In this document: in pieces, positions 3,583 through 49,955 of the stretch | How positions within the stretch are numbered: the stretch's first letter is position 1 | Layout of the letters: every line of letters starts with the position of its first letter | IMG/VR virus record: IMGVR_UViG_3300020579_000012 | Span: 1-64,000 of that record | Origin: a virus | Length of the DNA stretch: 64,000 nucleotides | Direction: 5' to 3' (one strand) | Position numbers and translations under genes: made by a program | Notes under the pieces: generated by a model | Database searches by the model: none | Seen by the model: the letters and a program-made list of their open reading frames with translations, nothing else | What the model was told of the DNA's origin: nothing

Positions 3583-4080
3583 TTATCCGCAGTCGTGGCT
3601 CTTCAAGCACTTCATGCAGAGCGGTGTATCGCAGGAGATGCAGCGTGACGCCGCGTTCTTCCTGCAGCCACAGAGGACGGTCTGAGCGAGCTTGTGCTGC
3701 TCTGGCGGCTGCGGCGCCTGCAGTCCGAGCACGTCTCCCATCTGCTTGATTGCGTCCGGGACGTTCAGAGGGCCCGGCGCTTTGATGCTGATATTCCGCT
3801 TCCGAGGTTGCTGTCCGGGGATCTGCTCGTCGACGGTCAGGTGGTACTGCGACTGAAGTGTTTGACCCATCATCAGCGGTCGAATCCGCGCCCGAATCGG
3901 ATCGTCGTGGAGTTGGACGCAGTCGAGGCACATGCAGAGCGGGCAGATCTTCTGTGCGTAGGCGCCGGTCCGTTTATCCTGAACGTAGACCATCTTCTGA
4001 CCTTCATGGTGGGCGTTCATGCAGACCTGACAGGTCATAACGACCCGCTCGCCGAAGCTGCCACGGCCAAATTCGTTCAT
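3583..4080 (-). CDS. Cys/His-rich protein with two B-box-like zinc-binding segments
   Basis: CQVCMNAHHEG...CPLCMCLDCVQLHD and CGCRKNAASRCISCDTPLCMKCLKSHDC. ATGA overlap with the ATPase gene stop. Confidence 0.55.
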   Translation of the reverse strand: MNEFGRGSFGERVVMTCQVCMNAHHEGQKMVYVQDKRTGAYAQKICPLCMCLDCVQLHDDPIRARIRPLMMGQTLQSQYHLTVDEQIPGQQPRKRNISIKAPGPLNVPDAIKQMGDVLGLQAPQPPEQHKLAQTVLCGCRKNAASRCISCDTPLCMKCLKSHDCG

Positions 4081-5483
4081 CCATTCACCTTCCGTAGGAC
4101 GATTTCCTTGCCGTTATCCTCAGCAAGGCCGTTCCGAAGGATCCAACCGATGTAGTCGTACGAGGTCGTCCGAGCGACCCCAGCGACCGTCGCGAGCTGT
4201 TGGCGCGTCGCCGAGCCGGTCTCGAGCAGATGCTCCAGCATCGTCTTCATGCCGACCTTCGGCGCCTTCTGGAGCCACTTCGAGAATACCCCCGGATTCG
4301 ACGGTTTGTTTCCCGACGACGTCGAGAGCTGCTCGAACAGGCCGCGGAGCGCGTCGTACTGCGGCCGGAGGGACTCCCGGACGGCGGCGAGGCGGCGCTG
4401 GGCGTCCTGGTCGGACCGGCGCATAGTCGCGAGCTGCTCATGTAGATCCTGGAACTTCGACCTCAGATCCTCATTCTCCTTCTGGAGCCGGTCGAACTCG
4501 GCGGCACGGACAAGCGAGTGCTTCGACGGATCAGGTTCACGGACAATGCGACCTCGTCGAGGAGTCTCCGGCACGGAGACGACAGTCCGAGAGAGTTCCT
4601 TCCGAAGCTTCTCAATGAAATTCGTTGAATCCCCGAGCTGAACCTCGCCGGGCCGGATCTTCAGCCGCTTCATCTCGCGCGGATGGAGCGTATGCCGTTT
4701 CCGAAATATGAACTTCTCGAGACGGTCCTCGCCGGGGTTCCAGTACCACGCCTCGCCAGGAGCGAGGGATCCGAGCTCGTCGAAGCACTTCGAGACCTGC
4801 TCGTCGATCCCCTTCGACTCGATCCATTCCCGGACGGTCTCTCTATCCTTCCGGTGCGTCATGCCCATGACAATCAGTCCTTCGCACTGCGATAGGACAT
4901 CCTTGTCGATCGTAGCGGCACGCTGACTTGCGACAACGACGCCGTATCCAAAGTTTCCGCCGACGATCGCGAGCTTCGAGACGGCGGCCTTGCAGACTTC
5001 CATCTGCGGGCCCCTGGCCTTCTGAGGGATTAGGACTTGCGCCTCCTCGAAAAATAGGACACGAGGGATCTCAGGTTTCGCCCGCATTAGGCGTCCAGCA
5101 AAAGCCGTCATGAAGTGTCGAATCGTCCCAAGCGACTCGAAGGCAATGTCAATCACAGCGCAGATCGGTGTCGCAAGAAGCGCTTCTGCGAGTCTCTCGC
5201 CGGAGTCCTTCTCGAACGGGATATCTCCGTATGTCCCGCCGATCACAGCAACATTCAGTTCACTTGGACTGCCGTCCGGCTTGACCCGAAGACCGTACAG
5301 ATTGTTTGCCGGATCGGTCGCAATCCATGGGCGCCCCGCATACCAGAGCTCCTCCAGGATCACACCTAGGCCGTAGGTCTTACCCTTCTTTGATTGAGCA
5401 AGCATCGCGAGCTTGACGTCGCTCAAATCTTCGGGTAGTCCGAACGGCTTTCCGCTCGGAATTAGCGTACCGATGTGCAACAT
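4077..5483 (-). CDS. FtsK/HerA-superfamily (DUF87-like) P-loop ATPase with C-terminal coiled coil and wHTH-like domain
   Basis: Walker A AQSKKGKTYG, IATDPANNLYG, Walker B-like VLFFEEAQ, VVVASQRAATIDKDVLSQCE. C-terminal TRQQLATVAGVARTTSYDYIGWIL. Confidence 0.75.
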   Translation of the reverse strand: MLHIGTLIPSGKPFGLPEDLSDVKLAMLAQSKKGKTYGLGVILEELWYAGRPWIATDPANNLYGLRVKPDGSPSELNVAVIGGTYGDIPFEKDSGERLAEALLATPICAVIDIAFESLGTIRHFMTAFAGRLMRAKPEIPRVLFFEEAQVLIPQKARGPQMEVCKAAVSKLAIVGGNFGYGVVVASQRAATIDKDVLSQCEGLIVMGMTHRKDRETVREWIESKGIDEQVSKCFDELGSLAPGEAWYWNPGEDRLEKFIFRKRHTLHPREMKRLKIRPGEVQLGDSTNFIEKLRKELSRTVVSVPETPRRGRIVREPDPSKHSLVRAAEFDRLQKENEDLRSKFQDLHEQLATMRRSDQDAQRRLAAVRESLRPQYDALRGLFEQLSTSSGNKPSNPGVFSKWLQKAPKVGMKTMLEHLLETGSATRQQLATVAGVARTTSYDYIGWILRNGLAEDNGKEIVLRKVNG

Positions 5484-6585: not shown

Positions 6586-6596
6586 CGTGTACACGG

Positions 6597-19565: not shown

Positions 19566-19606
19566 GGGCGGGCCGCCGCTGGGGTGTTCCCGGCGACGGC
19601 CCGCCC
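19566..19606 (-). terminator. 10-bp GC stem-loop (GGGCGGGCCG/CGGCCCGCCC)
   Basis: Read directly; sits between the stop at 19611 and the next start at 19522. Confidence 0.35.
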
Positions 19607-19610
19607 TTCT

Positions 19611-23802: not shown

Positions 23803-23810
23803 AGCTTCCC

Positions 23811-30241: not shown

Positions 30242-30377
30242 CGGACCCCTCTACTCGCGTTCCCCGAACCCGCCATGTCTCTTCCTATCGCTGCCCTGGG
30301 AGCTTCGGAGGAACCTCCCAGGACAGCAGAGGAAGAGGACGGAGAGGTGGTCACGGCTCTCCGCCCCTGGAGGAACG

Positions 30378-31826: not shown

Positions 31827-32036
31827 CTAACCTTCCTTCTTCTCTTCCTTGGTGTATCGCTTCGTTGTGACAGAATTGGACACACCATCCGGACCGAGTT
31901 TTACTTTACACCGATCGCACGGAGCAGTCGTCACGCGGATCTTCGCGGCGTGCTCTCCTGGAGGCAGGCGCCGGTCTGATTCGAGACCGAGCGACCTGCC
32001 GCAGTATCCGCAGATGACGACCTTAGGGAGACTCAT
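31827..32036 (-). CDS. small zinc-ribbon protein
   Basis: CGYCG ... CDRC. Confidence 0.55.
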   Translation of the reverse strand: MSLPKVVICGYCGRSLGLESDRRLPPGEHAAKIRVTTAPCDRCKVKLGPDGVSNSVTTKRYTKEEKKEG

Positions 32037-33826
32037 TGACGTATCTCCTTTGGGGCGCCATTCCGGATTGCCTCATGGAACCAGTCCGGAAGCATCTTCG
32101 AGTTCTTCCAGAGGAATGACTCAAAACCCGCGTCCAGCAGATAGGTCGTTGCCCAGTCGTCGCGCGAGCGTACGGAGCGTCCGTAGGACTGCACGATCTT
32201 GAGGGCGCAGAGCCATGCGTACCACTGGGAATCCATGTCCATACGCTGTTTGATGACCCTGTCCTTCATATTGGGCCATGGCATTTTTGCGATCACCTGG
32301 AAGCGCGAGAGGTCACCTTTCAGGTCGAGACCTTCATGCATGGCGGGCGCGACGATGACGGAGTCTGTCCGGCGGGCGTGCTCGGCCAGCATTTCGTCCT
32401 TCGACTCGAAGTGCTCCTGGAACAGAAGCCGGTCGCCGTGCGGAGCAGGGATGTCATTGAAAAGGATCTTTGAGAGCGAGAAGGAGTGGCAGTGGATGAT
32501 TCCACGCTGCCCGCGGTGCCGTTCCAGGATCTCGATGACTTTTCGGACGAACTTCGGCTCGGTCGGATCCTTCGGGTTCTGCTCGCGCGTGAAGTATTTG
32601 AAACCGAAGTTTCCGCAGTAAGACTTGTGGATCAGCCGGTTCTCCACCGGGAAGTCGCATGGCGTCCGGATTAGCTCGACCTCGTCCATCGAGAGTCCGA
32701 GGTTCCGGGCCCAGACCTTGACGTCCAGGATCGTTGCCGACATGAAGCAGAGGCGATCGGCGTGACGGAACAGTAGATCCTGTGCGAAGTCCTTTGCGTA
32801 GAGTGGGCGGGCGACGATCTTCCGGCGCTCGTCGTCGGTCCTTTTGTCGTTGTACTTTACGACCTCCAGGATCCATTCGGTCTTCTCTAAGAAGGTCATG
32901 AAGTTCGAGAGCTTACCGTCCAACTCTCTGAGGGCGTCGATCTCAGCCGCGGACAGGTCCACGTCGTCGGAGTCCATTGAGCTTTCTGCTTCGCCTTCTG
33001 CGGCCTTCAGACGCCGCATGATGAGCGCGACGAGGTCGGTTTCTGCGAGCCATTCCAGAAACTCCGCCTTCGTCCTGATCTCACGGGTGATCTGGACACC
33101 GACCAGCGAGAGCGCCCACTCCGAGAGCTCCAGCGTCACGAATCCCATCAACTGAGATTCGCAGTTGTGCGCCTCGTCGACGATCATGAGGGCACGTTTC
33201 GGGAACCGCGAGATCCGCTTCTGGAAGAGGAAACTTGAGAAGTTGAAGAGCGAGATCGCTGCGTCGTGGCAGCGCTGAAGCTGCGCCCAGTACGGGCAGC
33301 GGTGGAAAGTTGCGGGGAGTGCAAGGCCGACCGCGGCTTGCATCGGCGAGATCTGCGCTGCGGAGGCATATTGATTAGCCTCGTCCGTGATGCACTCGCC
33401 GAGGATGCCTTTCGACCGGCGGCGGCAGACGCCGTCGCCAGCGTCCTGGCCATCTTCGGCAAGTTCGTGCGTGCAGGAGTAGTTCGACCGGCCCTTCAGC
33501 GTCTCGATGTCCGGTGCTGGGTAATCGGTGGCATACTGGTCCTGCAGGATCTTCTGAGAGGTCAGCATGAAGGTCGATTGTCCGTCCGACCGGAGGGCGT
33601 TCGCCAGGGTTTTGCAGGCGTCGGTCTTTCCGGCGCCGGTTGGTAGCTCTCCGACCACCACGCGCTTTCCCGCCGCGAAGGCCGCAGCGGCGCGCTCAAG
33701 GAAGTAAGTCTGTTGCGGGCGTGGAGTTTTCCCTGGTGTGAAGTGCCCGAGAAGCTGTTCCGCTGTGAATGACCAAGGCTTCACGTTTGAACTGGTTTGC
33801 GGTGGCGCGGCAGGCTTTGTGACCAC
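32033..33826 (-). CDS. DinG/XPD (Rad3)-family SF2 DNA helicase
   Basis: ELPTGAGKTD (motif I), MIVDEAHN (DEAH), QSYGRSVRSRDD (motif VI). Confidence 0.9.
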   Translation of the reverse strand: MVTKPAAPPQTSSNVKPWSFTAEQLLGHFTPGKTPRPQQTYFLERAAAAFAAGKRVVVGELPTGAGKTDACKTLANALRSDGQSTFMLTSQKILQDQYATDYPAPDIETLKGRSNYSCTHELAEDGQDAGDGVCRRRSKGILGECITDEANQYASAAQISPMQAAVGLALPATFHRCPYWAQLQRCHDAAISLFNFSSFLFQKRISRFPKRALMIVDEAHNCESQLMGFVTLELSEWALSLVGVQITREIRTKAEFLEWLAETDLVALIMRRLKAAEGEAESSMDSDDVDLSAAEIDALRELDGKLSNFMTFLEKTEWILEVVKYNDKRTDDERRKIVARPLYAKDFAQDLLFRHADRLCFMSATILDVKVWARNLGLSMDEVELIRTPCDFPVENRLIHKSYCGNFGFKYFTREQNPKDPTEPKFVRKVIEILERHRGQRGIIHCHSFSLSKILFNDIPAPHGDRLLFQEHFESKDEMLAEHARRTDSVIVAPAMHEGLDLKGDLSRFQVIAKMPWPNMKDRVIKQRMDMDSQWYAWLCALKIVQSYGRSVRSRDDWATTYLLDAGFESFLWKNSKMLPDWFHEAIRNGAPKEIRQ

Positions 33827-37548: not shown

Positions 37549-37665
37549 GCGGATCGCCCGTCCTGGGCGGACAGCCTGGAGAAATCCAGGGAGCGCAATG
37601 CGCTGTTCGCTCGGTACAACCGAACGTAACCTGCACCTCCAGCTTAACTTAGTTCCTTCTTCTTC

Positions 37666-37699
37666 GAGGGGGCTCAGTTCCTCCATACTGAGCCCCCTC
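37666..37699 (+). promoter_or_regulatory. perfect 12-bp stem-loop GAGGGGGCTCAG/CTGAGCCCCCTC, 26 nt upstream of the 37726 start
   Basis: Read directly; 10-nt loop. Confidence 0.5.
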
Positions 37700-37725
37700 G
37701 CCCCATACACCGTCGGAGCCTCTCG

Positions 37726-39378
37726 ATGAGCAACACTGTCGAGAATCTCGATCGTGGCGTGTCAGGCACGTCGGCGACGCTCGACAAGATGCACCAGCTC
37801 GTCGCTCAGGGAAAACTCGACCCGACGTTTCAAAAGATTGCGACTTGGATCCGCGCATCCGTCTCACAGGATCGTCGTGGCAAGACCAAGGATACGGCCG
37901 ACGCGATCTTCGATTGGGTGAAGACGAGCGGGATCTTTCAGTCAGATCCATTTCAGATCGAGAAGATTGAAAGTCCGATCGAAGCGATGCGTCCGATCAT
38001 CCAGGCGCGTCAGGCAGGCACATATACGGGACCCGGTCTCTTTGTCGGTGACTGCGACACGTTTGCGATCATAACTGCGACACTTGGCGGCATTCTAGGT
38101 TTCCAGTACGCCTTCGAGACCGCGAAGGTCGACGCCTCTCGTCCGGACGAGTTTTCGCACGTCTGGACGGCACTACTTGTCGACAACGACTGGTACCCGC
38201 TCGACTCCTCGACTCCTGGCGCCTACCCAGGCTGGCGCCCTCCTGTCGCGCCGAATCTGCTGGCGCGTTGGCCGGAGCAACCGATCGAGAACTTCGTCAA
38301 GGGGTCCGTCATGAGCGCATTCAACCGCGGACTCGGCGATAACCAGACCTCACCGACTGCTGGAATTGACACAGCGTATCCGCAGGACTACATCGCCTAC
38401 GGTGTTCCGAAAGATTTTGGCGCTGGCCCTGGCGTGATTCCGCAAGCGAACTTCGATGATCTTCAACTTCTCCCGCCGCATGAGACGCAGATTCCGGACG
38501 CCGACATGCAGCCGGACATGCATCTGCTTAAGGCTGCGCCGCTACTAAACCCATCCGAACGGATCGAGTCGATCTCTGGATTCCCGACAAACGACCACGG
38601 AAACCCGTACTTCCAGAGCAAACCCGGCAACCCACGCTACAAGGTAGAAAACCAGTTTTACCCGCCCGGCTCGCGCTGGAACGGGCAGATGGGTCACGAC
38701 ATCGTCCGGTACGTTAAGACCGGGTCGTACGTGAAGGTCAAGAGTGCCGAGTCCCCAGAGAGACAAGTGAGGGCGAATATGGCTCAACCGATGATGGTTC
38801 GCAGGCGTATCATCATGTCGAACGGACGACAGATTCCGTTCGGTGCGATGGAGGGCCTCGGTCAGACTGATCCTGGTCTTGTCACGTCACTTGATCCGTC
38901 CGTCTCAGACCCGACAGCCACACCACCGGACACGTCGGGGATGGTTACGTCGCTTGGGCCGACTCCGGCTCCAGCTCCGACTCCAACTCCGGCTCCAGCA
39001 CCATCTTCGGCCTCCATCATGTCGACCGCCGTCACGTCGAATCAGCTTGCACCGACGCCGACTCCAGCCGCCTCATCGAGCCCGCAAGCCGCTGCCGCAG
39101 CATCCGCTGGAGGATCTGTCTGGTCGTCGATCTCATCTGCCTTCCAGGCTGCTGGAACGATCGCCCCGGCCGCGATGCAGTCATCGTTGATGCAGTCCGT
39201 TATCGCAGCGACGAACAAGCTTGCCGGGAAAACCGTTCTCGCACCCGGCGTCGTTCCATGGTACCTGAACCCGATCACGCTCTTCACGCTCGCCCTGATT
39301 GGTGGCGGCGGCTACTACATTCTGCACAAGAACCGTCCTGGGGGCTCCGGAACTCGCCGTCGCCGTCGGTACGCCTAA
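37726..39378 (+). CDS. transglutaminase-like cysteine-protease-fold protein with PAST-rich linker and C-terminal membrane anchor
   Basis: GDCDTFA (Cys), FSHVW (His), PLDSS (Asp). C-terminus LFTLALIGGGGYYILHKNRPGGSGTRRRRRYA. Confidence 0.6.
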   Translation: MSNTVENLDRGVSGTSATLDKMHQLVAQGKLDPTFQKIATWIRASVSQDRRGKTKDTADAIFDWVKTSGIFQSDPFQIEKIESPIEAMRPIIQARQAGTYTGPGLFVGDCDTFAIITATLGGILGFQYAFETAKVDASRPDEFSHVWTALLVDNDWYPLDSSTPGAYPGWRPPVAPNLLARWPEQPIENFVKGSVMSAFNRGLGDNQTSPTAGIDTAYPQDYIAYGVPKDFGAGPGVIPQANFDDLQLLPPHETQIPDADMQPDMHLLKAAPLLNPSERIESISGFPTNDHGNPYFQSKPGNPRYKVENQFYPPGSRWNGQMGHDIVRYVKTGSYVKVKSAESPERQVRANMAQPMMVRRRIIMSNGRQIPFGAMEGLGQTDPGLVTSLDPSVSDPTATPPDTSGMVTSLGPTPAPAPTPTPAPAPSSASIMSTAVTSNQLAPTPTPAASSSPQAAAAASAGGSVWSSISSAFQAAGTIAPAAMQSSLMQSVIAATNKLAGKTVLAPGVVPWYLNPITLFTLALIGGGGYYILHKNRPGGSGTRRRRRYA

Positions 39379-39382: not shown

Positions 39383-39652
39383 ATGTCTCAGATCATCTAC
39401 GTCCGGAGACCCGGCCTCGGCGACGTGACTTCATCGATCACGGACGCTGCGACCGCGTCTATGGCTCCCGTGATCGAGCAGATGCTCGTGAATGACGTTC
39501 TACCGATGGTTGTTGTCGGTATGGTTGCGGGAGCCGCCGTCGCCGCGTTCATCGGCACATGGTTTTCGCACAAGGCGATGCGTTCTGCAGGAGTTATCAG
39601 GAAGAATCCTGTCGCGCGGACGTACGTCTCGCTCCGACGGAGGCGTGCGTGA
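39383..39652 (+). CDS. small membrane protein with basic tail
   Basis: LPMVVVGMVAGAAVAAFIGTW ... IRKNPVARTYVSLRRRRA. Confidence 0.6.
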   Translation: MSQIIYVRRPGLGDVTSSITDAATASMAPVIEQMLVNDVLPMVVVGMVAGAAVAAFIGTWFSHKAMRSAGVIRKNPVARTYVSLRRRRA

Positions 39653-39675
39653 GCTGGCTGAATTTAAAATCAAGG

Positions 39676-42642
39676 ATGATGTCAGAGCTTCGGCGCTGGG
39701 CTCGAGGTATTACAGAGACCAGCGGCCCGGAGTTCAACTTCGACGCCGAGTCGGCAATCTGGTGGTTCGCAAACGACTACCACAGCGGCGGCGGCAGCGA
39801 GCTCTATCAGATCCTCTCGATGTCGAAACTCCGTCCCGGTCCGTCGCACCGTTCTGTCTCAGACGAGGGTGAGATCCCGGCGATGATGTACGAGGCTCTC
39901 GAGCAGAAGTTCATCCCGAAGGGTAAAGCTAAACGGAATCCTTCCCGTGTCCGAGCGAACAGTAACTACGCTCATCAGGACGCGAAGCTTTTCCAGATCG
40001 TCTACATCGGTCGATCGAAGTACCGAGCGATCGGACGGCTGCCAGACGGAATCATGCTCTGGAAGGGCTCAGGTCCGACGATTTATATGTTGATCGAGAA
40101 TGCCCAGGGCGAGTGGGGAACCGGTCGCTTCGACAACAAACTCTTCGCGCAGCCGGTCGCCCAGCAGTTCTCGCGTCTGCCGACAGAGACCAAGCGGTAC
40201 ATCATCACCCAGCAGAAACGCGGTTCGGCGATCACTCCGGGCGGCATCTGGAAGAACTCCGGAGGCTCCGTGCGGAAGAATATCTACACCTTTAACAATC
40301 CCGGCAACGCCCAGAAGATTCTCGCCGAGAACTTCATGCGCGGCGCGAACTCCGGCGTTGCATCGTCGATGTACATCCACGGGAACAGGATCTACTCGTA
40401 CGGCCCGCACTTCCCGATCGCGCAGCGGAACGACGACGGGACGATCCTGATCCGGCACCCGAGCAAGAAGGCGCCGTCAAAGACGACTGCGGGGCACATC
40501 TCCGCCGTCGTGAATGCTGCGCGTCAGGTCTACTCGCCCGACTCGATTCTGTATGACACGGCCGGGGAGCTTTCGGCTGAGGCGAAAGGTCCGGCGGCGT
40601 ACTCGAACCCAGGTGTCAGAAAAAACATCTACACGTTCAACAATCCGCGTGACTCCTCTGTCGAGTCCGCCGCTCGCGCGGTCGGTCTGTTCGTTGGAGT
40701 TTGGTCGCCTGGAGACGGACAGACACGATATCGCTTCTTCTCGAAGACAACGCGCGGTAGTCGGTATGCCGATTACCACGAGGGCGATGGCATCTACACG
40801 GCGCTCGGACGGAAGGACGCGCTGGCGTTCATTGCGGCATACGGGAAGGGCCGTGGAGCCAGGAGAAATCCAAAGACGTCGGTATATGTTATCGAAGGCT
40901 TCACACACCGTGGTCGACGCGGCAAAAGTCAACGGCGTGCGGAATTCAGGACGCCGTCTCTCACAGAGGCACGTGCGAGAGCGGAGCAGATATTCCAGGA
41001 GACCGGCGTTGTTGTTGCGATCACTCAGAGGAACCCACTGACACGCTCGGAGGCCGGATACCTGCTTCGGCATGCGAAGGCAGACGTCACCGAGGCAGCC
41101 GTCGCTCGCCGACATGGCCTGACCTACGAGCAGAAGTACGCCGTCGGACACGCCCGCGGGATCGGCTTCGCGGTCCAGGAGACAGGACCGAAGGCAGCGC
41201 GGAAGGCCTGGGTCGATCTCCATACGAGGTTGGATCGGGTCACTCGGAATCCGTGCTTGAATAATCCAACCTGCGCGAATCCGAGGCATCCGCACGGTCC
41301 TGTCGAGAACACAGCCTACGGACAGCGTCGTTCGTATGCCGACTTCGTCGCGCGGAAGCGTGCGGAGTACGGTGACAAGTTCGACGACTCGGATCTCGCG
41401 CCTCAGTTCATCCAGTACTACGAATCCGGCGCGCGGATCGAGGTCGAGTTCGTCTCGTCGACAACCGGTAAGCCGTACGAGACGAAGCGCGGTCGCGTCG
41501 GCGTGACGACCGGCTGGAAGCCTGTCTTTCTGCTCATGCTGACAACGAGAAGTATGGGTTCTCCGTACACGCTCGGGAAAAATGATCGTGTAGTCCGGTT
41601 CGTCCGGTCGAACCCTCTTACCGTCTCCGAAGACAGAGAGATCGAGCACGTCGCAAGACGTGAGAGGATCATAGGCGAGCAGATTCAGAGTCCCGGCAGC
41701 CGCGGGTATGCACTCGGTCACTCGGACGGAATGAACCACGTCCGGAGGAAGTACGGCCCTATTCGTCGCAACCCTCTCCTCCAGACGATCGGCCTGATGG
41801 CAAACCCGCCGGTCTCTGACCAGTGGAACAGGATGACGTCGCGCCAGCGACTCCATGCGCTCGAGTTCGTCGGCTACCCGACGGATTTCGCCAGTTCGAT
41901 GGCCCGGCGCCTCTGGATGACGCTTCCTGGGACTGCTCGCGAGCGCCTCGAGTCCGCTCGGCTCGACACGAGCTCGCGCGGGACGACCCGTCGGCGCGTC
42001 GCTGTGCCGGTCGGGGCGAATCCTCTGACACGGACAGAATCAGGTCAGATCCTTCGGGATGCGAGATTTGACGCCCGTTACGGATCGACATTTCAGGGTG
42101 GACACACTCGCTCATCCCGTGCCGGGATGGCCTGGGCGAAGGCGAAAGTCGTCCGTCAGTACGGACCGAAGAGCGCTCGTCGCGCTGCGAGTCGGATTGC
42201 CGATAAAGCTCGGACTGTGGCGCGGACGGCGATGTCGAACCCCGGTGTCCGCTTCCCGAAGCCCGGCACGAAGTTGACCGTTGCACAAGCCTTCGAGCTC
42301 GCGCGCCGGATCGGCGATCGGGCCCTGATCGAGCAGTGCCGGAAGGCGCTGAAGCTCCAGAAGGCCGCCAACAAGGACGTCAAGTGTGTCATCTGGAAGA
42401 CCTTTCCGATGGGCTCGAAAGGACAAATCGACTCGGTGATCGCCCTGACGCACTACGGCGACTCGCCGGAGACGATGTACCGGCCGCCGCCAGGATCGAA
42501 GAAGGGCAACCACATGTACCGTCACAACTGGGGCGAGAAGGGCGGCAAGCAGACCGTCCCGCTGCTCGCCTCGGCGGACGGGAAGATGCTGCTGATGCCG
42601 CTTGAAGGTAAGAAGGTCGCTTCCGATTGGCTGAGGCATTGA
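39676..42642 (+). CDS. 988-aa basic multi-repeat protein (internal or core virion protein candidate)
   Basis: ATG ATG at 39676. VRKNIYTFNNP occurs twice, NPLT(R/V)(S/T)E modules three times, and there are many [RKS]NP motifs. Confidence 0.7.
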   Translation: MMSELRRWARGITETSGPEFNFDAESAIWWFANDYHSGGGSELYQILSMSKLRPGPSHRSVSDEGEIPAMMYEALEQKFIPKGKAKRNPSRVRANSNYAHQDAKLFQIVYIGRSKYRAIGRLPDGIMLWKGSGPTIYMLIENAQGEWGTGRFDNKLFAQPVAQQFSRLPTETKRYIITQQKRGSAITPGGIWKNSGGSVRKNIYTFNNPGNAQKILAENFMRGANSGVASSMYIHGNRIYSYGPHFPIAQRNDDGTILIRHPSKKAPSKTTAGHISAVVNAARQVYSPDSILYDTAGELSAEAKGPAAYSNPGVRKNIYTFNNPRDSSVESAARAVGLFVGVWSPGDGQTRYRFFSKTTRGSRYADYHEGDGIYTALGRKDALAFIAAYGKGRGARRNPKTSVYVIEGFTHRGRRGKSQRRAEFRTPSLTEARARAEQIFQETGVVVAITQRNPLTRSEAGYLLRHAKADVTEAAVARRHGLTYEQKYAVGHARGIGFAVQETGPKAARKAWVDLHTRLDRVTRNPCLNNPTCANPRHPHGPVENTAYGQRRSYADFVARKRAEYGDKFDDSDLAPQFIQYYESGARIEVEFVSSTTGKPYETKRGRVGVTTGWKPVFLLMLTTRSMGSPYTLGKNDRVVRFVRSNPLTVSEDREIEHVARRERIIGEQIQSPGSRGYALGHSDGMNHVRRKYGPIRRNPLLQTIGLMANPPVSDQWNRMTSRQRLHALEFVGYPTDFASSMARRLWMTLPGTARERLESARLDTSSRGTTRRRVAVPVGANPLTRTESGQILRDARFDARYGSTFQGGHTRSSRAGMAWAKAKVVRQYGPKSARRAASRIADKARTVARTAMSNPGVRFPKPGTKLTVAQAFELARRIGDRALIEQCRKALKLQKAANKDVKCVIWKTFPMGSKGQIDSVIALTHYGDSPETMYRPPPGSKKGNHMYRHNWGEKGGKQTVPLLASADGKMLLMPLEGKKVASDWLRH

Positions 42643-42652: not shown

Positions 42653-43762
42653 ATGATCGGAGCACTTGTATTTGCGAACCCCGGGCGGCCTGTCGCCGCA
42701 CGGCGGAGACGTTCACGTTCCAGAACCGCCCGCGCGACGGGCAAGGAGATCAGGATGGCACGCACTCGTACGCGCCGTCGGGCAGGGCGGCGTAGGAATG
42801 CCAAAGGGCATTTCATGAAGACACGCCGGTCGTCCCGGCGTCGGAACCCCAGCGGTCACATCAAGGTAGGCCGCCGCTGGAGGAAGATCACGAAGTTCGC
42901 CACGCGCCGCAAGCGCGGCAAGCGTCGCGGACAGATTCGTGGGTTTCACTTTCCGAAGCGGTATCGCCGGTCGCGTCGGCGCGTCCACCGGAACCCGGTG
43001 GTCGTGTCGAATCCGCGTCGGAGCCGTCGTCGGGCCCGCCGGAATCCGTACCGTCGGAGCTATCGGCACGCGCGCCGGAACCCGGCCGTGTCGATGCGTC
43101 TGTCGAACGATCCGATCGCGGCGATCAAGAATGCGCTGATGTCGGCGTTCTCGATGGACACCGCAGAGACGCTGTTCCAGATGGGCCTCGGCTTCGGCGG
43201 TGCGATGTCTATGAGCAAGTGGCTGTACGTTCAGCCCTGGATGCCCGCCACGGCCACGACGGCGCCGTTCGTGCAGGTCGGGTCGACGCTGTTGTCGACC
43301 GCGCTGTTGACCGGTGCGTCGGTTCTGCTCAAGAATCCGAAGTTGACGGCCCGGGTCCTGACCGGCGGTCTCTTCGCAACGCTTTGGCAGGGGCTCTCTC
43401 TGGCGGTTGCCGGAACCCCGGTCCAGCAGTTCATTCCGACCCTCTCCGGTTCGCCGGAGACCGATGCCTTCCGGAAGGCGATCGAGGCGGAGGTCCTCAA
43501 GGAGCTCAAGGGTGGCGGCGTCCACGGCTACCTGCGTGCGGCGGGTTCCGAGGGGATGTCGACCTACCTGCAGCCTGCCGGGATCGCGTACCTCAAGCCC
43601 GCGGGCAGCGAGGCGTACCTGACCCAGGTGAACACCGAGCGTGCGAACGCCGGGATGGGCGCCTATTTGACCCAGGTCAATTCCGAGATGGCGAATGCCG
43701 GAGTCGGACACGACCAGGGCGACGACGAGTTCTCCCGTCGGGGCATGTCGGAGAGGTTCTAG
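42653..43762 (+). CDS. arginine-rich (protamine-like) N-terminal domain fused to a hydrophobic C-terminal half
   Basis: RRRRSRSRTARATG...RTRTRRRAGRRRN...RRSRRRVHRNP... Confidence 0.7.
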   Translation: MIGALVFANPGRPVAARRRRSRSRTARATGKEIRMARTRTRRRAGRRRNAKGHFMKTRRSSRRRNPSGHIKVGRRWRKITKFATRRKRGKRRGQIRGFHFPKRYRRSRRRVHRNPVVVSNPRRSRRRARRNPYRRSYRHARRNPAVSMRLSNDPIAAIKNALMSAFSMDTAETLFQMGLGFGGAMSMSKWLYVQPWMPATATTAPFVQVGSTLLSTALLTGASVLLKNPKLTARVLTGGLFATLWQGLSLAVAGTPVQQFIPTLSGSPETDAFRKAIEAEVLKELKGGGVHGYLRAAGSEGMSTYLQPAGIAYLKPAGSEAYLTQVNTERANAGMGAYLTQVNSEMANAGVGHDQGDDEFSRRGMSERF

Positions 43763-43781
43763 ATCAGAGCGATCGAAGGGA

Positions 43782-43846
43782 GCACCGGGGACGTGAGTCT
43801 CCGGTGCCTCCCCGAGGGGTGTCCAGAACGGACGCCCCTCGGGGAG
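43782..43846 (+). terminator. twin GC-rich hairpins (second has a 12-bp perfect stem, CTCCCCGAGGGG/CCCCTCGGGGAG)
   Basis: Read directly, after the stop at 43762; no U-tract. Confidence 0.4.
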
Positions 43847-43936
43847 CCGGGCCAGAACGCCAGCCCGTCCCGCGGTATTTTGTGGACGAAAGTCCCGGCC
43901 GATGCGGAAGTGGCGTGAGATCGAAAGGTGGAAGCC

Positions 43937-44599
43937 ATGAATATGGGACAGGCGGCGGCAGCCGCGGCGGCGGATCCCGCCAGCCAGGGAGTGACGGTCG
44001 TTCAACCGTACTACAAGATCACGCAGGGCGTTCCTGCGGCGATCGTGCGGTCGTACAAGCAGCCCTTGTACGACTCCGAGATCATCCTGGCGTCGGCGCC
44101 GCAGCGTGAGTTCACGCTGTACCAGAAGCCCGTCGGCCAGACGCTCAACGACGGTGTGACCGTGAAGACGTTCTTGTACTCGAACCAGACCCAGGCGGGC
44201 TCCCTCGGGACTCCCCTGAGTTTCGACGTATTCGGGTATAACTGCCGCATCTGGGGCAGCCCGGCGTCCAAGCTCCTGTCGATCGGCAACTACACCCTGG
44301 TCGAAGCCGCGGGCGTCGCCCAGGTCGTTTTCGGACAGGACACGACCTTCCTGACGATCCCGATCGAGGACGTGCCGTCCGGCGTCGACACCGAAGGTCA
44401 GGCCGTGACCGATGCTCCGCACATCGGCTGGGGCGTGAGCGACAACATCTACCGGTTCGATATCGGTGGACGTGCGCTCCACATCAACGCGACAGAGCCG
44501 TATTCCGTCAAGATCTCCTGGCCGAGCGGGCTGACCGGCACGACCGGCAACCTGCTCTTCCGCTGGTTCATGAGGGGCATCCTCTACAAGGGCGTCTAG
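43937..44599 (+). CDS. beta-rich structural protein, capsid candidate (jelly-roll-like)
   Basis: ATG at 43937 follows AAGGTGGA. Beta-strand-like segments; flanked by the strongest hairpins in the window. Confidence 0.55.
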   Translation: MNMGQAAAAAAADPASQGVTVVQPYYKITQGVPAAIVRSYKQPLYDSEIILASAPQREFTLYQKPVGQTLNDGVTVKTFLYSNQTQAGSLGTPLSFDVFGYNCRIWGSPASKLLSIGNYTLVEAAGVAQVVFGQDTTFLTIPIEDVPSGVDTEGQAVTDAPHIGWGVSDNIYRFDIGGRALHINATEPYSVKISWPSGLTGTTGNLLFRWFMRGILYKGV

Positions 44600-44626
44600 A
44601 GCGCCTTTGGCATCGAGTGTAACTTC

Positions 44627-44649
44627 GCGTGCCCCGAAGAGGGGCACGC
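44627..44649 (+). terminator. 9-bp perfect stem-loop GCGTGCCCC-GAAGA-GGGGCACGC
   Basis: Read directly; 28 nt after the stop at 44599. Confidence 0.45.
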
Positions 44650-44731
44650 CTTGATGGACTCGACGAACTAGAATAGCGCCCGCACTGTGCGCGGTCCGCT
44701 TCCCTGCTGAGTAGCTCGGAAGGAGACGACG

Positions 44732-45673
44732 ATGAGTTGGGGTCAGGTACCGACATTCCTCCGCGACAAGGACACCGGCCAGATCTACATGAACCCAGCG
44801 AAGGACTGGGTTCAACCGTTCGAGCTGACGGTCTCGAAGCCGAACCAGATCATCCACCTCGCAGCAGGAGAGAGTCGTGGGGTCTTTCCGCTCACGGCCC
44901 AGTACGACGGGCCGATCGAGGTTTTCTATGTCAAAGCGAACGTCTATGCTCCGGCCGAGGACCCGACACAGCCGGGCGCGCTCCTTCAGACGTACGATAT
45001 CGATTTCCTGCTGGAGCATCCTGGAAAGCGGATTCAGTTCTCGAACAGGATCGTTCCGCTCCTGGCCCTATCCGGGAACGCTGCGCAGCCGTACGTCCTG
45101 CCGGAGACGATCTTTGTTCCGCCGGTCCAGTCGCTCAATCTGACACTCGTAAACAACGATCTTGTGAACGCCGTCTTCGTTGAGTTTGTTCTTGGCGGGA
45201 TCAAGTTCTATCCGAATCAGGCGCCCGCCGGTCAGATCAAGGACGAGGTTTGGAAGTACGTCGATCGGCGTGAGCGGACCTATTGCTACTTTCAGACGAC
45301 TGACGAGCCGGTCGTTCTGACGGCGCTCCAGGAGACCATGTTCTTCATGACGATCCCGGACAACTCGGACTTTGAGTGCTTCAAGCTCTCGCAGCAGTCG
45401 ACCGACGTCTTTCGCTGTTTGATTCGAGATGGTCAGAATGACCGGGCTCTAACCGGTGATCGGATCCACCGGGACCTGCTGTTCGGAGGTCACGCACAGA
45501 TGCCACTAGGAGCACAGTTCCTTGGCTCCGGTGGGATCTGGCCCGCTCGGTGGGCGTCATCCTGGCTGATTCGACGATCGACGAAAGTCCAGCTCGACCT
45601 GTCGGACATCTCGGACGCTTCGAACACGATCAAGGTCGTCTTCGCGGGGAGAAAGATCTCGTATGTCAGCTAA
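44732..45673 (+). CDS. beta-rich structural protein, major capsid candidate (two jelly-roll-like halves)
   Basis: 313 aa. Two halves each end in long beta-like runs (VEFVLGGIKFY; NTIKVVFAGRKISY). No HK97-like features seen. Confidence 0.5.
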   Translation: MSWGQVPTFLRDKDTGQIYMNPAKDWVQPFELTVSKPNQIIHLAAGESRGVFPLTAQYDGPIEVFYVKANVYAPAEDPTQPGALLQTYDIDFLLEHPGKRIQFSNRIVPLLALSGNAAQPYVLPETIFVPPVQSLNLTLVNNDLVNAVFVEFVLGGIKFYPNQAPAGQIKDEVWKYVDRRERTYCYFQTTDEPVVLTALQETMFFMTIPDNSDFECFKLSQQSTDVFRCLIRDGQNDRALTGDRIHRDLLFGGHAQMPLGAQFLGSGGIWPARWASSWLIRRSTKVQLDLSDISDASNTIKVVFAGRKISYVS

Positions 45674-46400
45674 GAGGCCGCCGGGACGTCCTCCGGGACG
45701 CCCGCCGGGCCCCCCTCGCCCGCCGCGTGGCGGTGGCATGGGCGGTCCCGATCACGAGGAGTACCAATACGAGGGCTGGCGTGACGCCGGACAGGGCGAG
45801 CCGCGTCCGAACGACGTCGTCTTTGATCCTAACTGTCCGCCGCAGCCGGACCCGTGCGCAAAGCCGCGAGTTTGCTTCGTCAAGTTTCCGGCCTTCAATC
45901 AGCCACCTTGGTTCTCGAAACCGCTGATTAAAGTTCGCTCGTCGCTCGTGATTCCGGCGGGACAGATTGCGCTGATATTCGACCGTGAGATTCCTGATCG
46001 GCAGCGTGCAGTCTCGTCGTTTCTTGGGATCGACGTTGCACCGATTGCGCCGCTACTTAACTCTCAGCTTGAGTTCTGGTTTCAGCTCGGCCAGAAGGGT
46101 ATCGCTGCGCCATCCTCAAACGTCATCCCTGTCTGGGACGATCAGAATCCGACAAGCTACGGGACATCTCACGCGATCCAGTCTGGCCGAACGACCGTCT
46201 GGCCCGGTGTTGGAACACCTCTAAACTTTCAAGAAGTTGGCCTGCAGTTCGGTCTGCGTGGCCGCTGTCAGTTTCAAGGGCTTATCGAGAACAAGTCTGG
46301 CGTCGCGATTACGGTCCGCGGTGTCTTCGGCTACTACTACTACTGGGCGTCCGCAAAGGGCGGAGCGTCCGAGTGGGAGTCCGGCGACTTCGAGGCCTAG
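45663..46400 (+). CDS. structural protein with RPPG-repeat N-terminus and beta-rich C-terminal domain (penton or minor capsid candidate)
   Basis: MSAKRPPGRPPGRPPGPPRPPRGGG..., ...VAITVRGVFGYYYYW. Confidence 0.5.
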   Translation: MSAKRPPGRPPGRPPGPPRPPRGGGMGGPDHEEYQYEGWRDAGQGEPRPNDVVFDPNCPPQPDPCAKPRVCFVKFPAFNQPPWFSKPLIKVRSSLVIPAGQIALIFDREIPDRQRAVSSFLGIDVAPIAPLLNSQLEFWFQLGQKGIAAPSSNVIPVWDDQNPTSYGTSHAIQSGRTTVWPGVGTPLNFQEVGLQFGLRGRCQFQGLIENKSGVAITVRGVFGYYYYWASAKGGASEWESGDFEA

Positions 46401-46832: not shown

Positions 46833-47732
46833 ATGGCAAGCGGTGGAATTGGAAATCAGTCCCCGGCGTCACTCTTCCAGGCACGTCTGGACACGACGGA
46901 CGGCGTCAATAATCTCCTGACCCTGAAACAGTACCAGGGAAACAAAGTCGTCGTTTCCGGAGTGACGGTCGTGATTCCCGGAGGCGGTCTGACCGTCTCG
47001 GTAGCTGCGAACCTGATCGACCCGGCCGGAGCGGACTTCGGCTCTCCCGGCGTCGCCAGCACGCTATACTATGTCTACATCTCGAACGCAAGGTCTCCAT
47101 TTGCGCCGTCGTCGATCCGGCTCTGCGCGACCGCACCGACCCTGGTGAACGGTGTCAAGTACCTCGGTGCCGCCGGGAACGCGCTCAACTGGCGCTTCGT
47201 CGGCTGGGTCTTCCTGAACGCCACGCCGCAGTTCGAGTCCTCACTGACGGGAAGACTCATCGTCAACTACTACAACCGGCTGCTCCTGAAGCTATTCACC
47301 TGTCCCGGATATGTCGACGACAACGCGGCCACCCTATACCTGTGTAACAATACGGTATGGGATCAGATCTCGAAGGGGACTGTAACGGGCGGCGTCGACA
47401 GCCGCGTGACCTACATCGCCAACGGCGAGGATGCTCAGTCATTCAAGATCGCCGGATCCGCGGACAATACTGTAGGCCGTCCGGGACTTATTGGGCTTGG
47501 TATCGACACACCGAACACCTCAAAAGTAGAGGCGATCCTGGATAATCCAACCGCAGGGGATATCTCGATCCATGAGACATACGAAGATGTGGGCGTTGAA
47601 GGCCACCACACTGCCGACCTTCTTGGCATGCAGACTGCCGTGAATCCGATGAACGTCTTCGCGGACGACGTCCGGAACGGCGGCACGAAAGACCCATTTT
47701 TGACTTACCTCACGGGAACGCTGTTCGCGTAA
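46833..47732 (+). CDS. fibre or spike-like protein
   Basis: MASGG N-terminus. STLYYVYISN...WRFVGWVF pattern as in phage fibre proteins, from memory. Confidence 0.5.
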   Translation: MASGGIGNQSPASLFQARLDTTDGVNNLLTLKQYQGNKVVVSGVTVVIPGGGLTVSVAANLIDPAGADFGSPGVASTLYYVYISNARSPFAPSSIRLCATAPTLVNGVKYLGAAGNALNWRFVGWVFLNATPQFESSLTGRLIVNYYNRLLLKLFTCPGYVDDNAATLYLCNNTVWDQISKGTVTGGVDSRVTYIANGEDAQSFKIAGSADNTVGRPGLIGLGIDTPNTSKVEAILDNPTAGDISIHETYEDVGVEGHHTADLLGMQTAVNPMNVFADDVRNGGTKDPFLTYLTGTLFA

Positions 47733-47736: not shown

Positions 47737-48405
47737 ATGGCGAGCGGCGGCGGCCCCGGCGGGGGCGGAGGCCCCGGAGGGTCTGGAGGCGGTATCAAGC
47801 ACTATTGCGAAGTCCGATTGGACGCGACCATGGCCCTGCTGGGCGCCACCCGGTACATGGTACCCTGGACCCATGTCGTCTACGACGAGAGCGGGATCTA
47901 CTCGATCGTCGTCGATCCGTCTCCTCCGGCAAACTGGAATCCGGACGGCCGGTACGGTGCGTTCGATATCCCGGAGGACGGATCATGGACCCTCTGGTGT
48001 CAGGCCTATCAGCAGACATCGGGAAGCACGGAACACGGTCTGAACTTTCTGAGAGATATTCCTGCGGTTCAGCACTCTCCGACAGCACTTCCCGGAGACC
48101 ACGCGCGGGGAGAATGGCTCCTACTCCAGAACCCGGTATCTCCGGACGCTACGAACCAGCCGATGACGTCCATCTACAAGGGTGCGCTGTTTAAGGGTGA
48201 TCGAATCTACTGCGAGGTGCAATCCGCGGACCCTTTCTACCTTCTGTACAACGATCCCGCAATACCTCCTCCGGGCTGGGGTGGCACCGTTCAGGACTGG
48301 ATCAATGCCCAGGCGATCCGGCCGAAGGAGCAGTACGTTTACCCGAGGATGGTGGCGTACATGGATGGCCCGTTGCCGCCACTCTTGGATAAGATTCTGA
48401 GCTGA
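47737..48405 (+). CDS. Gly-rich-N-terminus structural protein (C1q/TNF-like beta domain guess)
   Basis: MASGGGPGGGGGPGGSGGG... Confidence 0.5.
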   Translation: MASGGGPGGGGGPGGSGGGIKHYCEVRLDATMALLGATRYMVPWTHVVYDESGIYSIVVDPSPPANWNPDGRYGAFDIPEDGSWTLWCQAYQQTSGSTEHGLNFLRDIPAVQHSPTALPGDHARGEWLLLQNPVSPDATNQPMTSIYKGALFKGDRIYCEVQSADPFYLLYNDPAIPPPGWGGTVQDWINAQAIRPKEQYVYPRMVAYMDGPLPPLLDKILS

Positions 48406-48415: not shown

Positions 48416-48805
48416 ATGGCTAAAGGCGGAGGTCCTGGTGGCGGCTCCGGTTCGAAACAAGCCGGAAACGTAATCGACGTAACTGGAACCAGCACCGATA
48501 TCAACACCACTGTATTCGATGTTGTTCAGGCTCGAGGGCTGGTCGGCATTGGAGCAATCAAGAATACGGGCGCCAATAGCATTACGATCATCGAGACCGT
48601 CACCGACAAGTTCGGCGTCACGACGCCTGTGCCGACGGACATCCCGGCCGGAGACCAGTACATCCTGAATCCGCAGTCCAGTTTCAACGATGAGATCACG
48701 AACTCCTGGCCCCCATATACGGAGTACAAACTGGAGGTTCAGAGCACGACCGCCGGTCAGCCGAGCACCTTCGAGTTGCACTACATCGATGTTTCACCGT
48801 CCTGA
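48416..48805 (+). CDS. small structural protein with Gly-rich N-terminus
   Basis: MAKGGGPGGGSGSK... Confidence 0.55.
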   Translation: MAKGGGPGGGSGSKQAGNVIDVTGTSTDINTTVFDVVQARGLVGIGAIKNTGANSITIIETVTDKFGVTTPVPTDIPAGDQYILNPQSSFNDEITNSWPPYTEYKLEVQSTTAGQPSTFELHYIDVSPS

Positions 48806-49241: not shown

Positions 49242-49955
49242 ATGGGAAACTTCACCAGTCCCGGCGGAACGCTCGTCTGCGAGATCTGGGCTGACGGCGG
49301 AATCGGACAGACATGGGGGTCAGCATCCGGAAAGGGCGGCGGGGGTGGCAGCTACGCGAGGGTGGAGCTTGTGACAGCTCCCGGAGACATACTGCAATTC
49401 CTCGACACTGGTGCTGGTGGCATAACTAAACTCACCGTAGCAGCAGTAATCAAGGCGTCAGCAGGGAATGGAGGTGCTGGTGCTGGGGGTGGAGGAGTTG
49501 CTACCGTCGGCGACGTGCTTTATAACGGCGGAAGTGGAGCCAATGCCTCGGATGTCAACGGTTTCAATGATGACGGAGGCGGCGGAGGAGGACCTGCTCT
49601 AAGAGATACCAATGGCGTTAGCACGCCTACTACCACAAGTATTCTTGGCGGTGTAACGTCGCCTGGGAATTTTGGTGGAGAAGGCGGTGGGAGATTTTCT
49701 AGCGCTCCTCAGCCTCCTGAAAGTGGGAGCTCTCCAGGAGGCGGCGGAGGCGGTGCAGGGAATGGAAATCCTAGCCCTGGCGGTAGTAGTGGTGGCTATG
49801 CGGTTGCTGTCTGGACTTTGGCAAACTGGAATGGGAATCCGCAGGTTGGTGGGACTCTTCCTGTTTCAGGCGCAAGTCCATTATATACCGAAGGGGCGCC
49901 TCAACCGGCTCCTCCGGCCTTGGATCCGACGCAGCGAGCGGCATTTGTGATGTGA
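49242..49955 (+). CDS. glycine-rich domain protein
   Basis: Multiple GGGGG tracts; VCEIWADGGIGQ...GKGGGGGSYA pattern of phage Gly-rich proteins. Confidence 0.6.
   Translation: MGNFTSPGGTLVCEIWADGGIGQTWGSASGKGGGGGSYARVELVTAPGDILQFLDTGAGGITKLTVAAVIKASAGNGGAGAGGGGVATVGDVLYNGGSGANASDVNGFNDDGGGGGGPALRDTNGVSTPTTTSILGGVTSPGNFGGEGGGRFSSAPQPPESGSSPGGGGGGAGNGNPSPGGSSGGYAVAVWTLANWNGNPQVGGTLPVSGASPLYTEGAPQPAPPALDPTQRAAFVM

Follow-up and report, generated by a model that had tools for sequence, protein, structure and literature searches.

What kind of shell, if any, is encoded by g220 and g313, two adjacent genes that lie among strong hairpins in the virus record IMGVR_UViG_3300020579_000012? The stretch of DNA analysed (64,000 nucleotides, positions 1 to 64,000 of that record; hereafter the window) is known here from sequence alone, and a sequence-only reading of it had proposed that the two gene products, of 220 and 313 residues, are a candidate capsid protein pair. 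Both open reading frames (ORFs) proved to be real, with 61 metagenomic homologues for g220 and 101 for g313, and the proposal is supported by the predicted jelly-roll folds of both products, by their place in a conserved virion-type module and by a link to the bacterial virus SSIP-1. The single most likely arrangement, to which we assign as a whole a probability of about 0.68, is that g313 encodes a major capsid protein (MCP) of the double-jelly-roll (DJR) type and g220 a single-jelly-roll (SJR) penton protein, with RNA stem-loops insulating g220, and that the window represents most, all but ~4.4 kb, of the ~68–69 kb genome of a tailless icosahedral double-stranded DNA virus with a prokaryote-type gene organization. 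The coordinates of all features are collected in Table 1.

Predicted fold of g313

The AlphaFold2 model of g313, calculated from an alignment of metagenomic homologues (predicted local distance difference test score, pLDDT, 87.1; predicted template-modelling score, pTM, 0.84), contains two consecutive eight-stranded jelly rolls in one chain (JR1 and JR2), in agreement with the two β-rich halves that had been read from the translation. According to DSSP, helical turns at residues ~108–119 precede strand G and a helix at residues 247–250 precedes strand G′; if our naming of the strands is right, these helices sit in the model where DJR-MCPs carry their post-F and post-F′ helices. Such α-helices after F and F′ are typical of DJR-MCPs and of DUF2961 proteins (PMC8812541). 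The two halves of g313 are also homologous to each other in sequence (hhalign 74.6%, E = 2.7e-5, 108 columns).

When the model was compared with the PDB using Foldseek, the top matches were the DUF2961/GH172 proteins 7v1v, 4kq7 and 8ic8 and peptidylglycine hydroxylating monooxygenase, PHM (E values of 1e-5 to 1e-4, probability 1.00, TM-scores of 0.35–0.42), which superimpose on g313 with an overall root-mean-square deviation (r.m.s.d.) of ~10 Å over more than 300 aligned columns. The SIDT1 ectodomain came next. Among the top matches, 4kq7 and 7v1v are genuine DJR proteins and homologues of viral DJR-MCPs, and PHM also has a DJR fold; DUF2961 is the closest cellular relative of the DJR-MCPs and forms capsomer-like trimers (PMC8812541). 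The MCP of STIV (3j31_P) was found with an E value of 1.2e-4 and a TM-score of 0.23 in the PDB and 0.32 in BFVD, where pithovirus and asfarvirus-like MCPs reached 0.35. All of the top Foldseek matches of g313 are two-jelly-roll proteins, and the barrels of g313 probably lie side by side, because an r.m.s.d. of ~10 Å over more than 300 columns is hard to obtain from stacked barrels. As modelled, g313 is a candidate DJR-type MCP that displays the fold-level hallmarks of this class only in part. It would be the major shell protein, one chain in which two homologous jelly rolls of the vertical type form a compact DJR like that of PM2 P2 or STIV B345, and by analogy with DJR-MCPs it may form pseudo-hexameric trimers.

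Neither g313 nor g220 matched anything in Pfam, PHROGs, NCBIfam or the sequences and profiles of the PDB, and a tblastn search of g313 against 50,697 deposited phage records returned nothing. A profile search of 1.84 billion representatives places g313 in a family of 445 clusters at 50% identity.

Predicted fold of g220 and its place in the shell

The model of g220, also calculated from an alignment of metagenomic homologues (pLDDT 80.4, pTM 0.72), consists of a disordered but highly conserved N-terminal arm, containing the conserved stretch ..PYYKITQGVPAAIVRSYKQPLYDSE.., followed by one eight-stranded sandwich. Its best match in the PDB is 6oj0_A, a capsid chain of Sulfolobus polyhedral virus 1, SPV1 (E = 1.4e-3, probability 1.00, TM-scores of 0.38/0.45), below which many SJR capsid proteins follow, with VP16 of P23-77 at rank 32 (probability 0.72). 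Structure prediction followed by Foldseek, the check suggested along with the original proposal, thus returned jelly rolls rather than other folds for both proteins, and judging from its model g220 is most likely an SJR shell protein with a conserved N-terminal arm.

Gene order was compared across 36 related loci with 42–89% MCP identity and two very distant members, L044 and L047. At distance, no gene of the module is as conserved as g220 (56–59%, versus 48–53% for g313 and 29–49% for g245), and in two very distant loci its homologue lies directly upstream of the MCP homologue (A2 hidden Markov model E values of 2e-34 and 7e-33). The small-before-large order of g220 and g313 is kept in all loci, the distant ones included.

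As far as is known, DJR viruses all possess a vertex protein with one jelly roll, which is usually encoded beside the MCP, and a DJR trimer forms a pseudo-hexamer without a partner. The most parsimonious reading, which we hold tentatively and at slightly less than even odds, is that g220 would be located at the five-fold vertex as the penton. Close behind it comes a possible role as a co-major shell protein, for which it speaks that g220 is the most conserved protein of the module and is uniquely insulated by strong RNA structures, that it resembles capsid jelly rolls of the SPV1 and helvetiavirus types, that SSIP-1 has been reported with two types of MCP, and that g245 could then be the penton. 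g245 is an alternative candidate for the penton; family searches in Pfam, PHROGs, NCBIfam and the PDB gave no match for it, and profile comparisons with g220, JR1 and JR2 gave no signal.

Relationship to SSIP-1

The Salisaeta phage SSIP-1 is a tailless, membrane-containing bacterial virus with T = 49 and a genome of 44 kb (PMC6260650). In its record, gp47 is a 'structural protein' of 256 residues that is preceded by the 211-residue structural protein gp46 and, farther upstream, by the giant gp43. When a broad family profile of g313 was run against all SSIP-1 ORFs, only gp47 matched (E = 6.5e-5; next best 0.66), and the local match between g313 and gp47 found by hhalign covers the same G–H–I strand region as the profile match. 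The best match of the g313 model in BFVD is I1ZBI0, a protein of 256 residues that is unnamed in the table (TM-scores of 0.56/0.67). A second link is provided by g550, which is similar to the SSIP-1 structural protein gp34 (phmmer 4.1e-6; hhalign 96.3%, E = 1.9e-9).

The two genomes also run in parallel order, from a giant or basic structural protein through a protein of ~210–220 residues and one of 256–313 residues to further small proteins, with g1027 occupying, by synteny only, the position of the giant structural protein gp43. As far as the sequences indicate, homologues of SSIP-1 virion proteins therefore appear here in the same order, g550 corresponding to gp34 and g313 to gp47. SSIP-1 is the closest relative of the pair with experimental data. 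To our knowledge, no other cultured tailless phage has a comparable size, and the capsid proteins of SSIP-1 have never been resolved. The group to which the pair belongs is most likely an undescribed and widespread group of ~70 kb tailless soil viruses that are distantly related to SSIP-1; a search of the literature found no description of it.

One or two major capsid proteins

The sequence-only reading had offered two options for g313, a short DJR or one partner of a two-MCP system, and had likened the pair to the MCP pairs of sphaerolipoviruses. The small-then-large order and the sizes do fit a shell of this second kind, in which g220 would be the small MCP (VP16 of P23-77 or VP7 of SH1) and g313 the large MCP (VP17 or VP4), with the second barrel of g313 standing as a tower on a base barrel, with hetero-hexameric capsomers and with hairpins that raise the dosage of g220. 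SSIP-1 has been placed among the two-MCP viruses in the literature; strong conserved stem-loops stand on either side of g220, which no other gene of the module exceeds in conservation; VP16 is among the structural matches of g220, which SPV1 leads; the SPV1 MCP has been described as basal to the helvetiavirus SJR-MCPs (PMC8812541); and g245 would be available as the penton. However, the likeness does not seem to extend to a base-plus-tower protein: the domains of g313 are homologous jelly rolls of equal size, its top matches are DJR proteins at an r.m.s.d. that is not expected from stacked barrels, and its best 50 matches in the PDB contain no VP17- or VP4-type chains. Membership of the sphaerolipoviruses is disfavoured because the gene directly upstream of the pair does not encode an ATPase, in contrast to the Helvetiavirae block of ATPase, small MCP and large MCP, because VP17-like chains are absent from the best 50 matches, and because no sphaerolipovirus protein resembles the pair in sequence. 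We consider a two-MCP shell of this kind unlikely, though a serious rival, and of the two options the short DJR is favoured.

It is likewise doubtful, but conceivable, that both this group and SSIP-1 have a hybrid shell, in which a DJR protein of the DUF2961/Bamfordvirae type is combined with an abundant SJR protein of the SPV1/Helvetiavirae type and a protein-recognized RNA element sets their ratio.

Structured RNA elements flanking g220

The twin hairpins that had been described at 43782–43846, one of them with a perfect run of 12 base pairs (bp), lie exactly there. Hairpin 1 begins 20 nucleotides (nt) past the stop codon of g369 and is GNRA-capped in most relatives, whereas the stem of hairpin 2 consists of the perfect 12 bp run, one G·U pair and then four more pairs, with a conserved base CCUCCCC/GGGGAGG. 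Together they fold with −62.1 kcal/mol (z = −8.05; none of 200 shuffles was as stable), and the 64-kb window contains, on either strand, no other 50-nt fold as stable as hairpin 2 (−44.6 kcal/mol; mean −11.6, s.d. 4.7). Among the relatives, double changes occur at 20 of the 23 pairs of the twin hairpins, including compensatory changes at all 11 pairs of the inner helix of hairpin 2, and 86.8% of the cells are paired, a value that is reached by none of 500 shuffles. A third stem-loop, GGAC-GAAA-GUCC with a GNRA loop, lies in the leader of g220 at 43884–43895; its counterpart in locus L007 reads GGAC-GAGA-GUCC.

Past g220, the perfect 9 bp hairpin at 44627–44649 is also present as described (arms 44627–44635 and 44641–44649), nested in a longer imperfect stem at 44613–44663 (z = −4.9) that begins 14 nt past the stop codon. 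Its flanks, CAACUUCG and CCUUGAUG, are conserved and together make up a UUC/CUU internal loop; in relatives the stem is capped by GNRA or UUCG loops. Double changes occur at 14 of the 17 pairs; 92.6% of the cells are paired, compared with 35–42% when the pairing is slid, and again none of 500 shuffles reaches this value. A covariance model of the element, R1, finds one strong match per genome, on the plus strand only and just after the g220 homologue, with scores of 53–71 bits versus at most 27 on the minus strand, also in loci outside the set from which the model was built. In both hairpin elements the G·U pairs lie on the plus strand. No family of Rfam 15 reaches its gathering score with either element; a sub-threshold match to an HDV-ribozyme-like family lies on the minus strand (24 bits, gathering score 50, E = 0.67).

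The hairpins around g220 are conserved RNA structures and not chance features. The proposal that they mark an abundantly expressed or transcript-stabilized gene gains strength from this, since the structures are conserved, strand-specific and RNA-like. Because the internal loop of the downstream element and its flanks are conserved in sequence, they hint at a specific binding partner. At both sites in the window a GC-rich stem-loop lies shortly past a stop codon, as in intrinsic terminators, and the U-tract directly 3′ of the stem is missing. At the same junction in L044, twin hairpins are followed by a T-run and form a canonical intrinsic terminator, and in L047 the g220 homologue is flanked on either side by hairpins whose tails are T-rich; since these two distant loci carry it, the bracketing of g220 by hairpins must be ancient. 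Only around g220 does the module have long flanking spacers (174 and 132 nt). The twin hairpins and the element after g220 would act on the sense-strand RNA as terminators, attenuators or 3′-end-protecting stem-loops, and in this way they may uncouple the expression of g220 from the upstream internal-protein operon and from the downstream g313–g245 unit and set the stoichiometry of the capsid proteins, with a dosage of g220 that may be either raised or lowered.

Mobile DNA has visited this region in several relatives. Free-standing double-motif LAGLIDADG homing-endonuclease genes lie between g220 and g313 in L007 (9102–9944), L028 (~5851–6681) and L030 (1838–2956) and in the gap of L029, and those of L007 and L028 start at the ATG within the conserved CCTTGATGG flank of the downstream element. 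In L007 (87% MCP identity), and in the same way in L025, g220 itself is split after '..VVQP' by an insert at 7784–8443. This insert, of 660 nt, is preceded by a U, has G as its last nucleotide and contains a LAGLIDADG ORF, and joining its flanks restores P-Y-Y-K-I-T-Q-G. By its splice-site logic it is a candidate group I intron; the group I intron models of Rfam did not match it. L013 and L024 have an insertion of ~950 nt between g369 and g220. A second exact match to AACTTCG-N-CCTTGATG lies inside g369 on the minus strand (42859–42897), inverted with respect to the element at 44621–44656; it has no stem between its flanks, none would be expected by chance, and three of ~14 distinct related genomes carry it. 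As a functional site it was rejected and is probably a coding coincidence, because so few of the distinct genomes have it.

The endonuclease genes placed directly after the downstream element, the intron-like split of g220 and the inverted motif in g369 could be taken to mean that the hairpins act at the DNA level, as landing or regulatory parts of endonucleases or introns, as recombination sites or as origin-like cruciforms, instead of as mRNA punctuation. This is improbable: every relative keeps the downstream element, whether it has an endonuclease or not, the second copy of the motif is confined to the few genomes mentioned, the scores differ strongly between the strands, G·U pairs and GNRA/UUCG tetraloops are features of RNA, both elements begin 14–20 nt past stop codons, and L044 has a canonical terminator at the same junction. 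We therefore keep to stem-loops that act on the transcript.

Gene module and genome type

The order g550–g89–g1027–g369–g220–g313–g245 is kept in every related locus that is long enough, even where similarity has fallen to E values of ~1e-23 to 1e-30. The overlap of g245 with g313 suggests translational coupling. On the other side of the pair, g369 is likely to be an internal or membrane-associated virion protein; g369 and g1027 might either belong to the core or condense DNA, or else be polyproteins in which protease sites recur. Neither g369 nor g550 matched a family in Pfam, PHROGs, NCBIfam or the PDB, and the distant homologues of g550 in L044 and L047 carry the Pfam domain Transglut_core (g550 hidden Markov model E values of 2e-25 and 5e-16). 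The block g299–g222–g129–g237 may encode proteins for vertices, spikes or host recognition that share an anchoring motif. Several proteins of the module have hydrophobic anchors, a hint towards a membrane, which the virion probably contains.

Within the window, a role in genome packaging can be proposed for only one ATPase, judging from sequence similarity: the HerA/FtsK-superfamily protein of 468 residues. Its HerA-clade domain comprises residues ~14–254, its C-terminal half is coiled-coil or leucine-zipper-like, and it is conserved on related large contigs (49–72% identity). A match to the PHROG 'terminase large subunit' was rejected, as it reflects HerA-type similarity instead. Among the genes of the module, no Walker A motif was found in g369, g1027, g89 or g550, and there is a doubtful one only in g190.

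A protein identical to g220 is called on contigs of ~68–69 kb from independent samples, and homologues of g220 and g313 occur on many metagenomic contigs of 64–75 kb. These come from soil and other non-saline metagenomes, mostly soil, and their lineage is unannotated. Because the genes are tightly packed, with Shine–Dalgarno-like motifs, the host is taken to be a prokaryote. A search for it in GTDB genomes yielded only one binned contig of 14 kb, and no integrated copy of this virus was found there; the tyrosine integrase suggests a temperate lifestyle. A tailed phage was considered and rejected, since no ORF of at least 300 residues in the window matched portal, terminase or HK97-MCP families. 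An antisense ORF of 768 residues (42713–45019, minus strand), which runs across g369, g220 and part of g313 and which a greedy longest-ORF caller prefers over the real plus-strand genes, was dismissed as a high-GC artefact because the plus-strand genes are the conserved ones. Elsewhere in the window there are further intergenic hairpins, GC-rich and very stable (−30 to −41 kcal/mol per 50 nt); most of them lack T-runs, and stable stems seem to serve as general gene punctuation across this genome.

Table 1. Positions of the genes, domains and structured elements discussed, in window coordinates.
Feature	Position	Strand	Description
g220	43937..44599	+	220-residue ORF; alternative GTG start at 43928
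g313	44732..45673	+	313-residue ORF
g313 JR1	residues ~27–159 (nt 44810–45208)	+	AlphaFold2 strands B–I
g313 JR2	residues ~183–310 (nt 45278–45661)	+	AlphaFold2 strands B′–I′
Upstream hairpin 1	43782..43807	+	arms 43782–43792 / 43797–43807, 11 bp, GUGA (GNRA) tetraloop
Upstream hairpin 2	43808..43846	+	arms 43808–43824 / 43830–43846, 17 bp
Downstream structured element	44611..44666	+	outer stem, conserved flanks, variable GC-rich inner stem-loop
Five-codon mini-ORF	44653..44670	+	ATG GAC TCG ACG AAC TAG; slot of LAGLIDADG gene in L007, L028
g550	37726..39378	+	homologue of SSIP-1 gp34
g1027	39559..42642	+	large basic protein, 163 K+R; 14 x-N-P motifs, mostly R/S-N-P
g369	42653..43762	+	very basic (75 K+R versus 18 D+E); hydrophobic middle part; RRNP repeats, 7 x-N-P motifs, mostly RRNP or SNP; 'AGSE..YL' and 'YLTQVN' repeats at the C terminus; conserved position immediately upstream of g220
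g245	45663..46400	+	11-nt overlap of its start codon with the g313 stop; accompanies the pair, conserved, across the whole assemblage
g299	46833–47732		in the g299–g237 block; least conserved part of module among relatives
g222	47737–48405		same block; Gly-rich N-terminus MA[SK]GGGPGGG.., common to g129 (hhalign 58%)
g129	48416–48805		same block; Gly-rich N-terminus MA[SK]GGGPGGG.., common to g222
g237	49242–49955		same block; Gly-rich throughout
HerA/FtsK-superfamily ATPase	4077..5483	−	468 residues, Walker A GKT
Tyrosine integrase	12824–13609	−	
D5/PriCT-type primase-helicase	27830–30241	−	
XPD/Rad3-like helicase	32033–33826	−	
Glycosyltransferase-like	13606–14259	−	
Glycosyltransferase-like	23065–23985	−	
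Glycosyltransferase-like	24404–26122	−	
Other stable hairpins	19561–19610, 2176–2225, 30286–30335, 31956–32005, 37661–37710, 3546–3595		50-nt folds; energies in text

Assessment of the capsid assignment

Several observations weigh against a DJR-type MCP with an SJR penton and insulating stem-loops. The side-by-side orientation of the g313 barrels is one that we infer from the model rather than see; the MCPs of PM2 and PRD1 are absent from the best 50 structural matches of g313; and g313 shows no sequence similarity to, or family membership among, the Bamfordvirae proteins, with low TM-scores to viral DJR-MCPs. It is unusual for a penton to be more conserved than the MCP, as g220 is. Profile comparisons detected no relationship between g220 and gp46 and no signal between g220 and gp45. 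SSIP-1 has been listed with two single-β-barrel MCPs, in one table with a question mark (PMC4958249, PMC5332951, PMC6356626). The HerA-like ATPase lies far from the capsid module and gave no signal in a profile comparison with SSIP-1 gp40, and a 33%-identical 'hera helicase' adjoins the terminase of the tailed phage MW202482 (Manatee Spring); since that tailed phage has a terminase of its own beside a similar gene, a packaging role of the ATPase in the window is no more than putative. The BFVD entry I1ZBI0 is only presumably gp47 of SSIP-1; a cluster look-up of it gave UniParc identifiers alone. Finally, a simple scan for intrinsic terminators calls neither hairpin element, because no T-run follows them.

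That g220 and g313 are not shell proteins, and instead are carbohydrate-binding or enzymatic jelly rolls of the GH172/DUF2961 kind or else vertex or receptor-binding proteins from a mobile element or virus of a different kind, is very unlikely: the best PDB matches of g313 are indeed glycoside hydrolases and a glycan-binding protein, its BFVD list holds many tail-fibre or 'minor tail' proteins at low TM-scores and the genome encodes several glycosyltransferases, but the pair are the most conserved genes of a 65–75 kb virus-like genome type and syntenic with the SSIP-1 structural block gp43–gp48, the broad g313 profile singles out a virion protein, the large ORFs include no other capsid candidate, HK97-type or otherwise, and DUF2961 genes are reported without virus association (PMC8812541).

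Comparison with known systems

The pair works like Varidnaviria capsid genes and stands outside every described family. DUF2961/GH172 proteins and PHM, which give the best structural matches of g313, are cellular enzymes without virus association, whereas g313 lies in a virion module and shares no sequence similarity with these proteins. With the DJR-MCPs of the prokaryotic Bamfordvirae (PM2 P2, STIV B345, PRD1 P3), g313 shares one chain with two eight-stranded jelly rolls and the post-F/F′ helices, and the genome shares the adjoining SJR gene and an ATPase of the FtsK/HerA superfamily, here with a putative packaging role. Three differences stand out. Sequence similarity between the halves is not known to be usual in DJR-MCPs, whereas the halves of g313 keep a detectable similarity; the SJR partner is more conserved here than the DJR protein; and the genome is larger by a factor of 3–4 than the <20 kbp quoted for prokaryotic viruses with DJR-MCPs (PMC8812541). 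If the assignment is correct, the DJR fold class extends to a widespread lineage with genomes of 65–75 kb, and the residual similarity of the barrels, together with the adjoining SPV1-like SJR protein, bears on whether the DJR arose by duplication and fusion in viruses or by capture from cells.

To the Helvetiavirae (Sphaerolipoviridae, Simuloviridae and Matshushitaviridae; VP16/VP17 of P23-77 and VP7/VP4 of SH1, HHIV-2 and HCIV-1) the pair is similar in having the small gene first, in its sizes and in the weak match between g220 and VP16, and the tailless, membrane-containing virion type, predicted here from the genes, would be shared. The conserved block of the Helvetiavirae runs from the ATPase through the small MCP to the large MCP, whereas no ATPase gene lies beside g220 and g313, and no similarity is seen at the family level. 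[quoted passage not shown] The shell proteins of SPV1 (Portogloboviridae), VP4 and VP10, are both single jelly rolls (PMC8459092); its chain 6oj0_A is the best PDB match of g220, and SPV1 differs in having no DJR protein, a hyperthermophilic archaeal host and a 20-kb genome. Were a hybrid shell true, it would be an architecture intermediate between two Varidnaviria kingdoms, in genomes 3–4 times the size of those of any known prokaryotic DJR virus.

In T7, gene 10 with the T-phi terminator and RNase III sites exemplifies phage mRNA punctuation around a capsid gene. Here likewise, GC-rich stem-loops directly past stop codons bracket one structural gene, and L044 carries a canonical terminator at this junction; the elements in the window differ in the missing U-tract and in belonging to no Rfam family, and the downstream one also in its conserved internal loop and flanks. 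With the conserved strand-specific stem-loops there is a concrete case, open to test, of how uncultured viruses of one group would control the dosage of a capsid gene. It is the large genomes, the barrel–barrel similarity and the conserved SJR partner with its RNA elements that take this group beyond the routine.

SSIP-1 comes closest of all. It differs in its smaller genome (44 kb versus ~68 kb), in being a halophile where the present group inhabits soil and non-saline settings, in the marginal sequence similarity of its proteins to those of the window and in its predicted packaging ATPase gp40, which has no counterpart here. If gp47 and g313 are true DJR proteins, the placement of SSIP-1 with the viruses that have two single-barrel MCPs needs to be revisited, and SSIP-1 would offer a ready experimental model for the whole assemblage.

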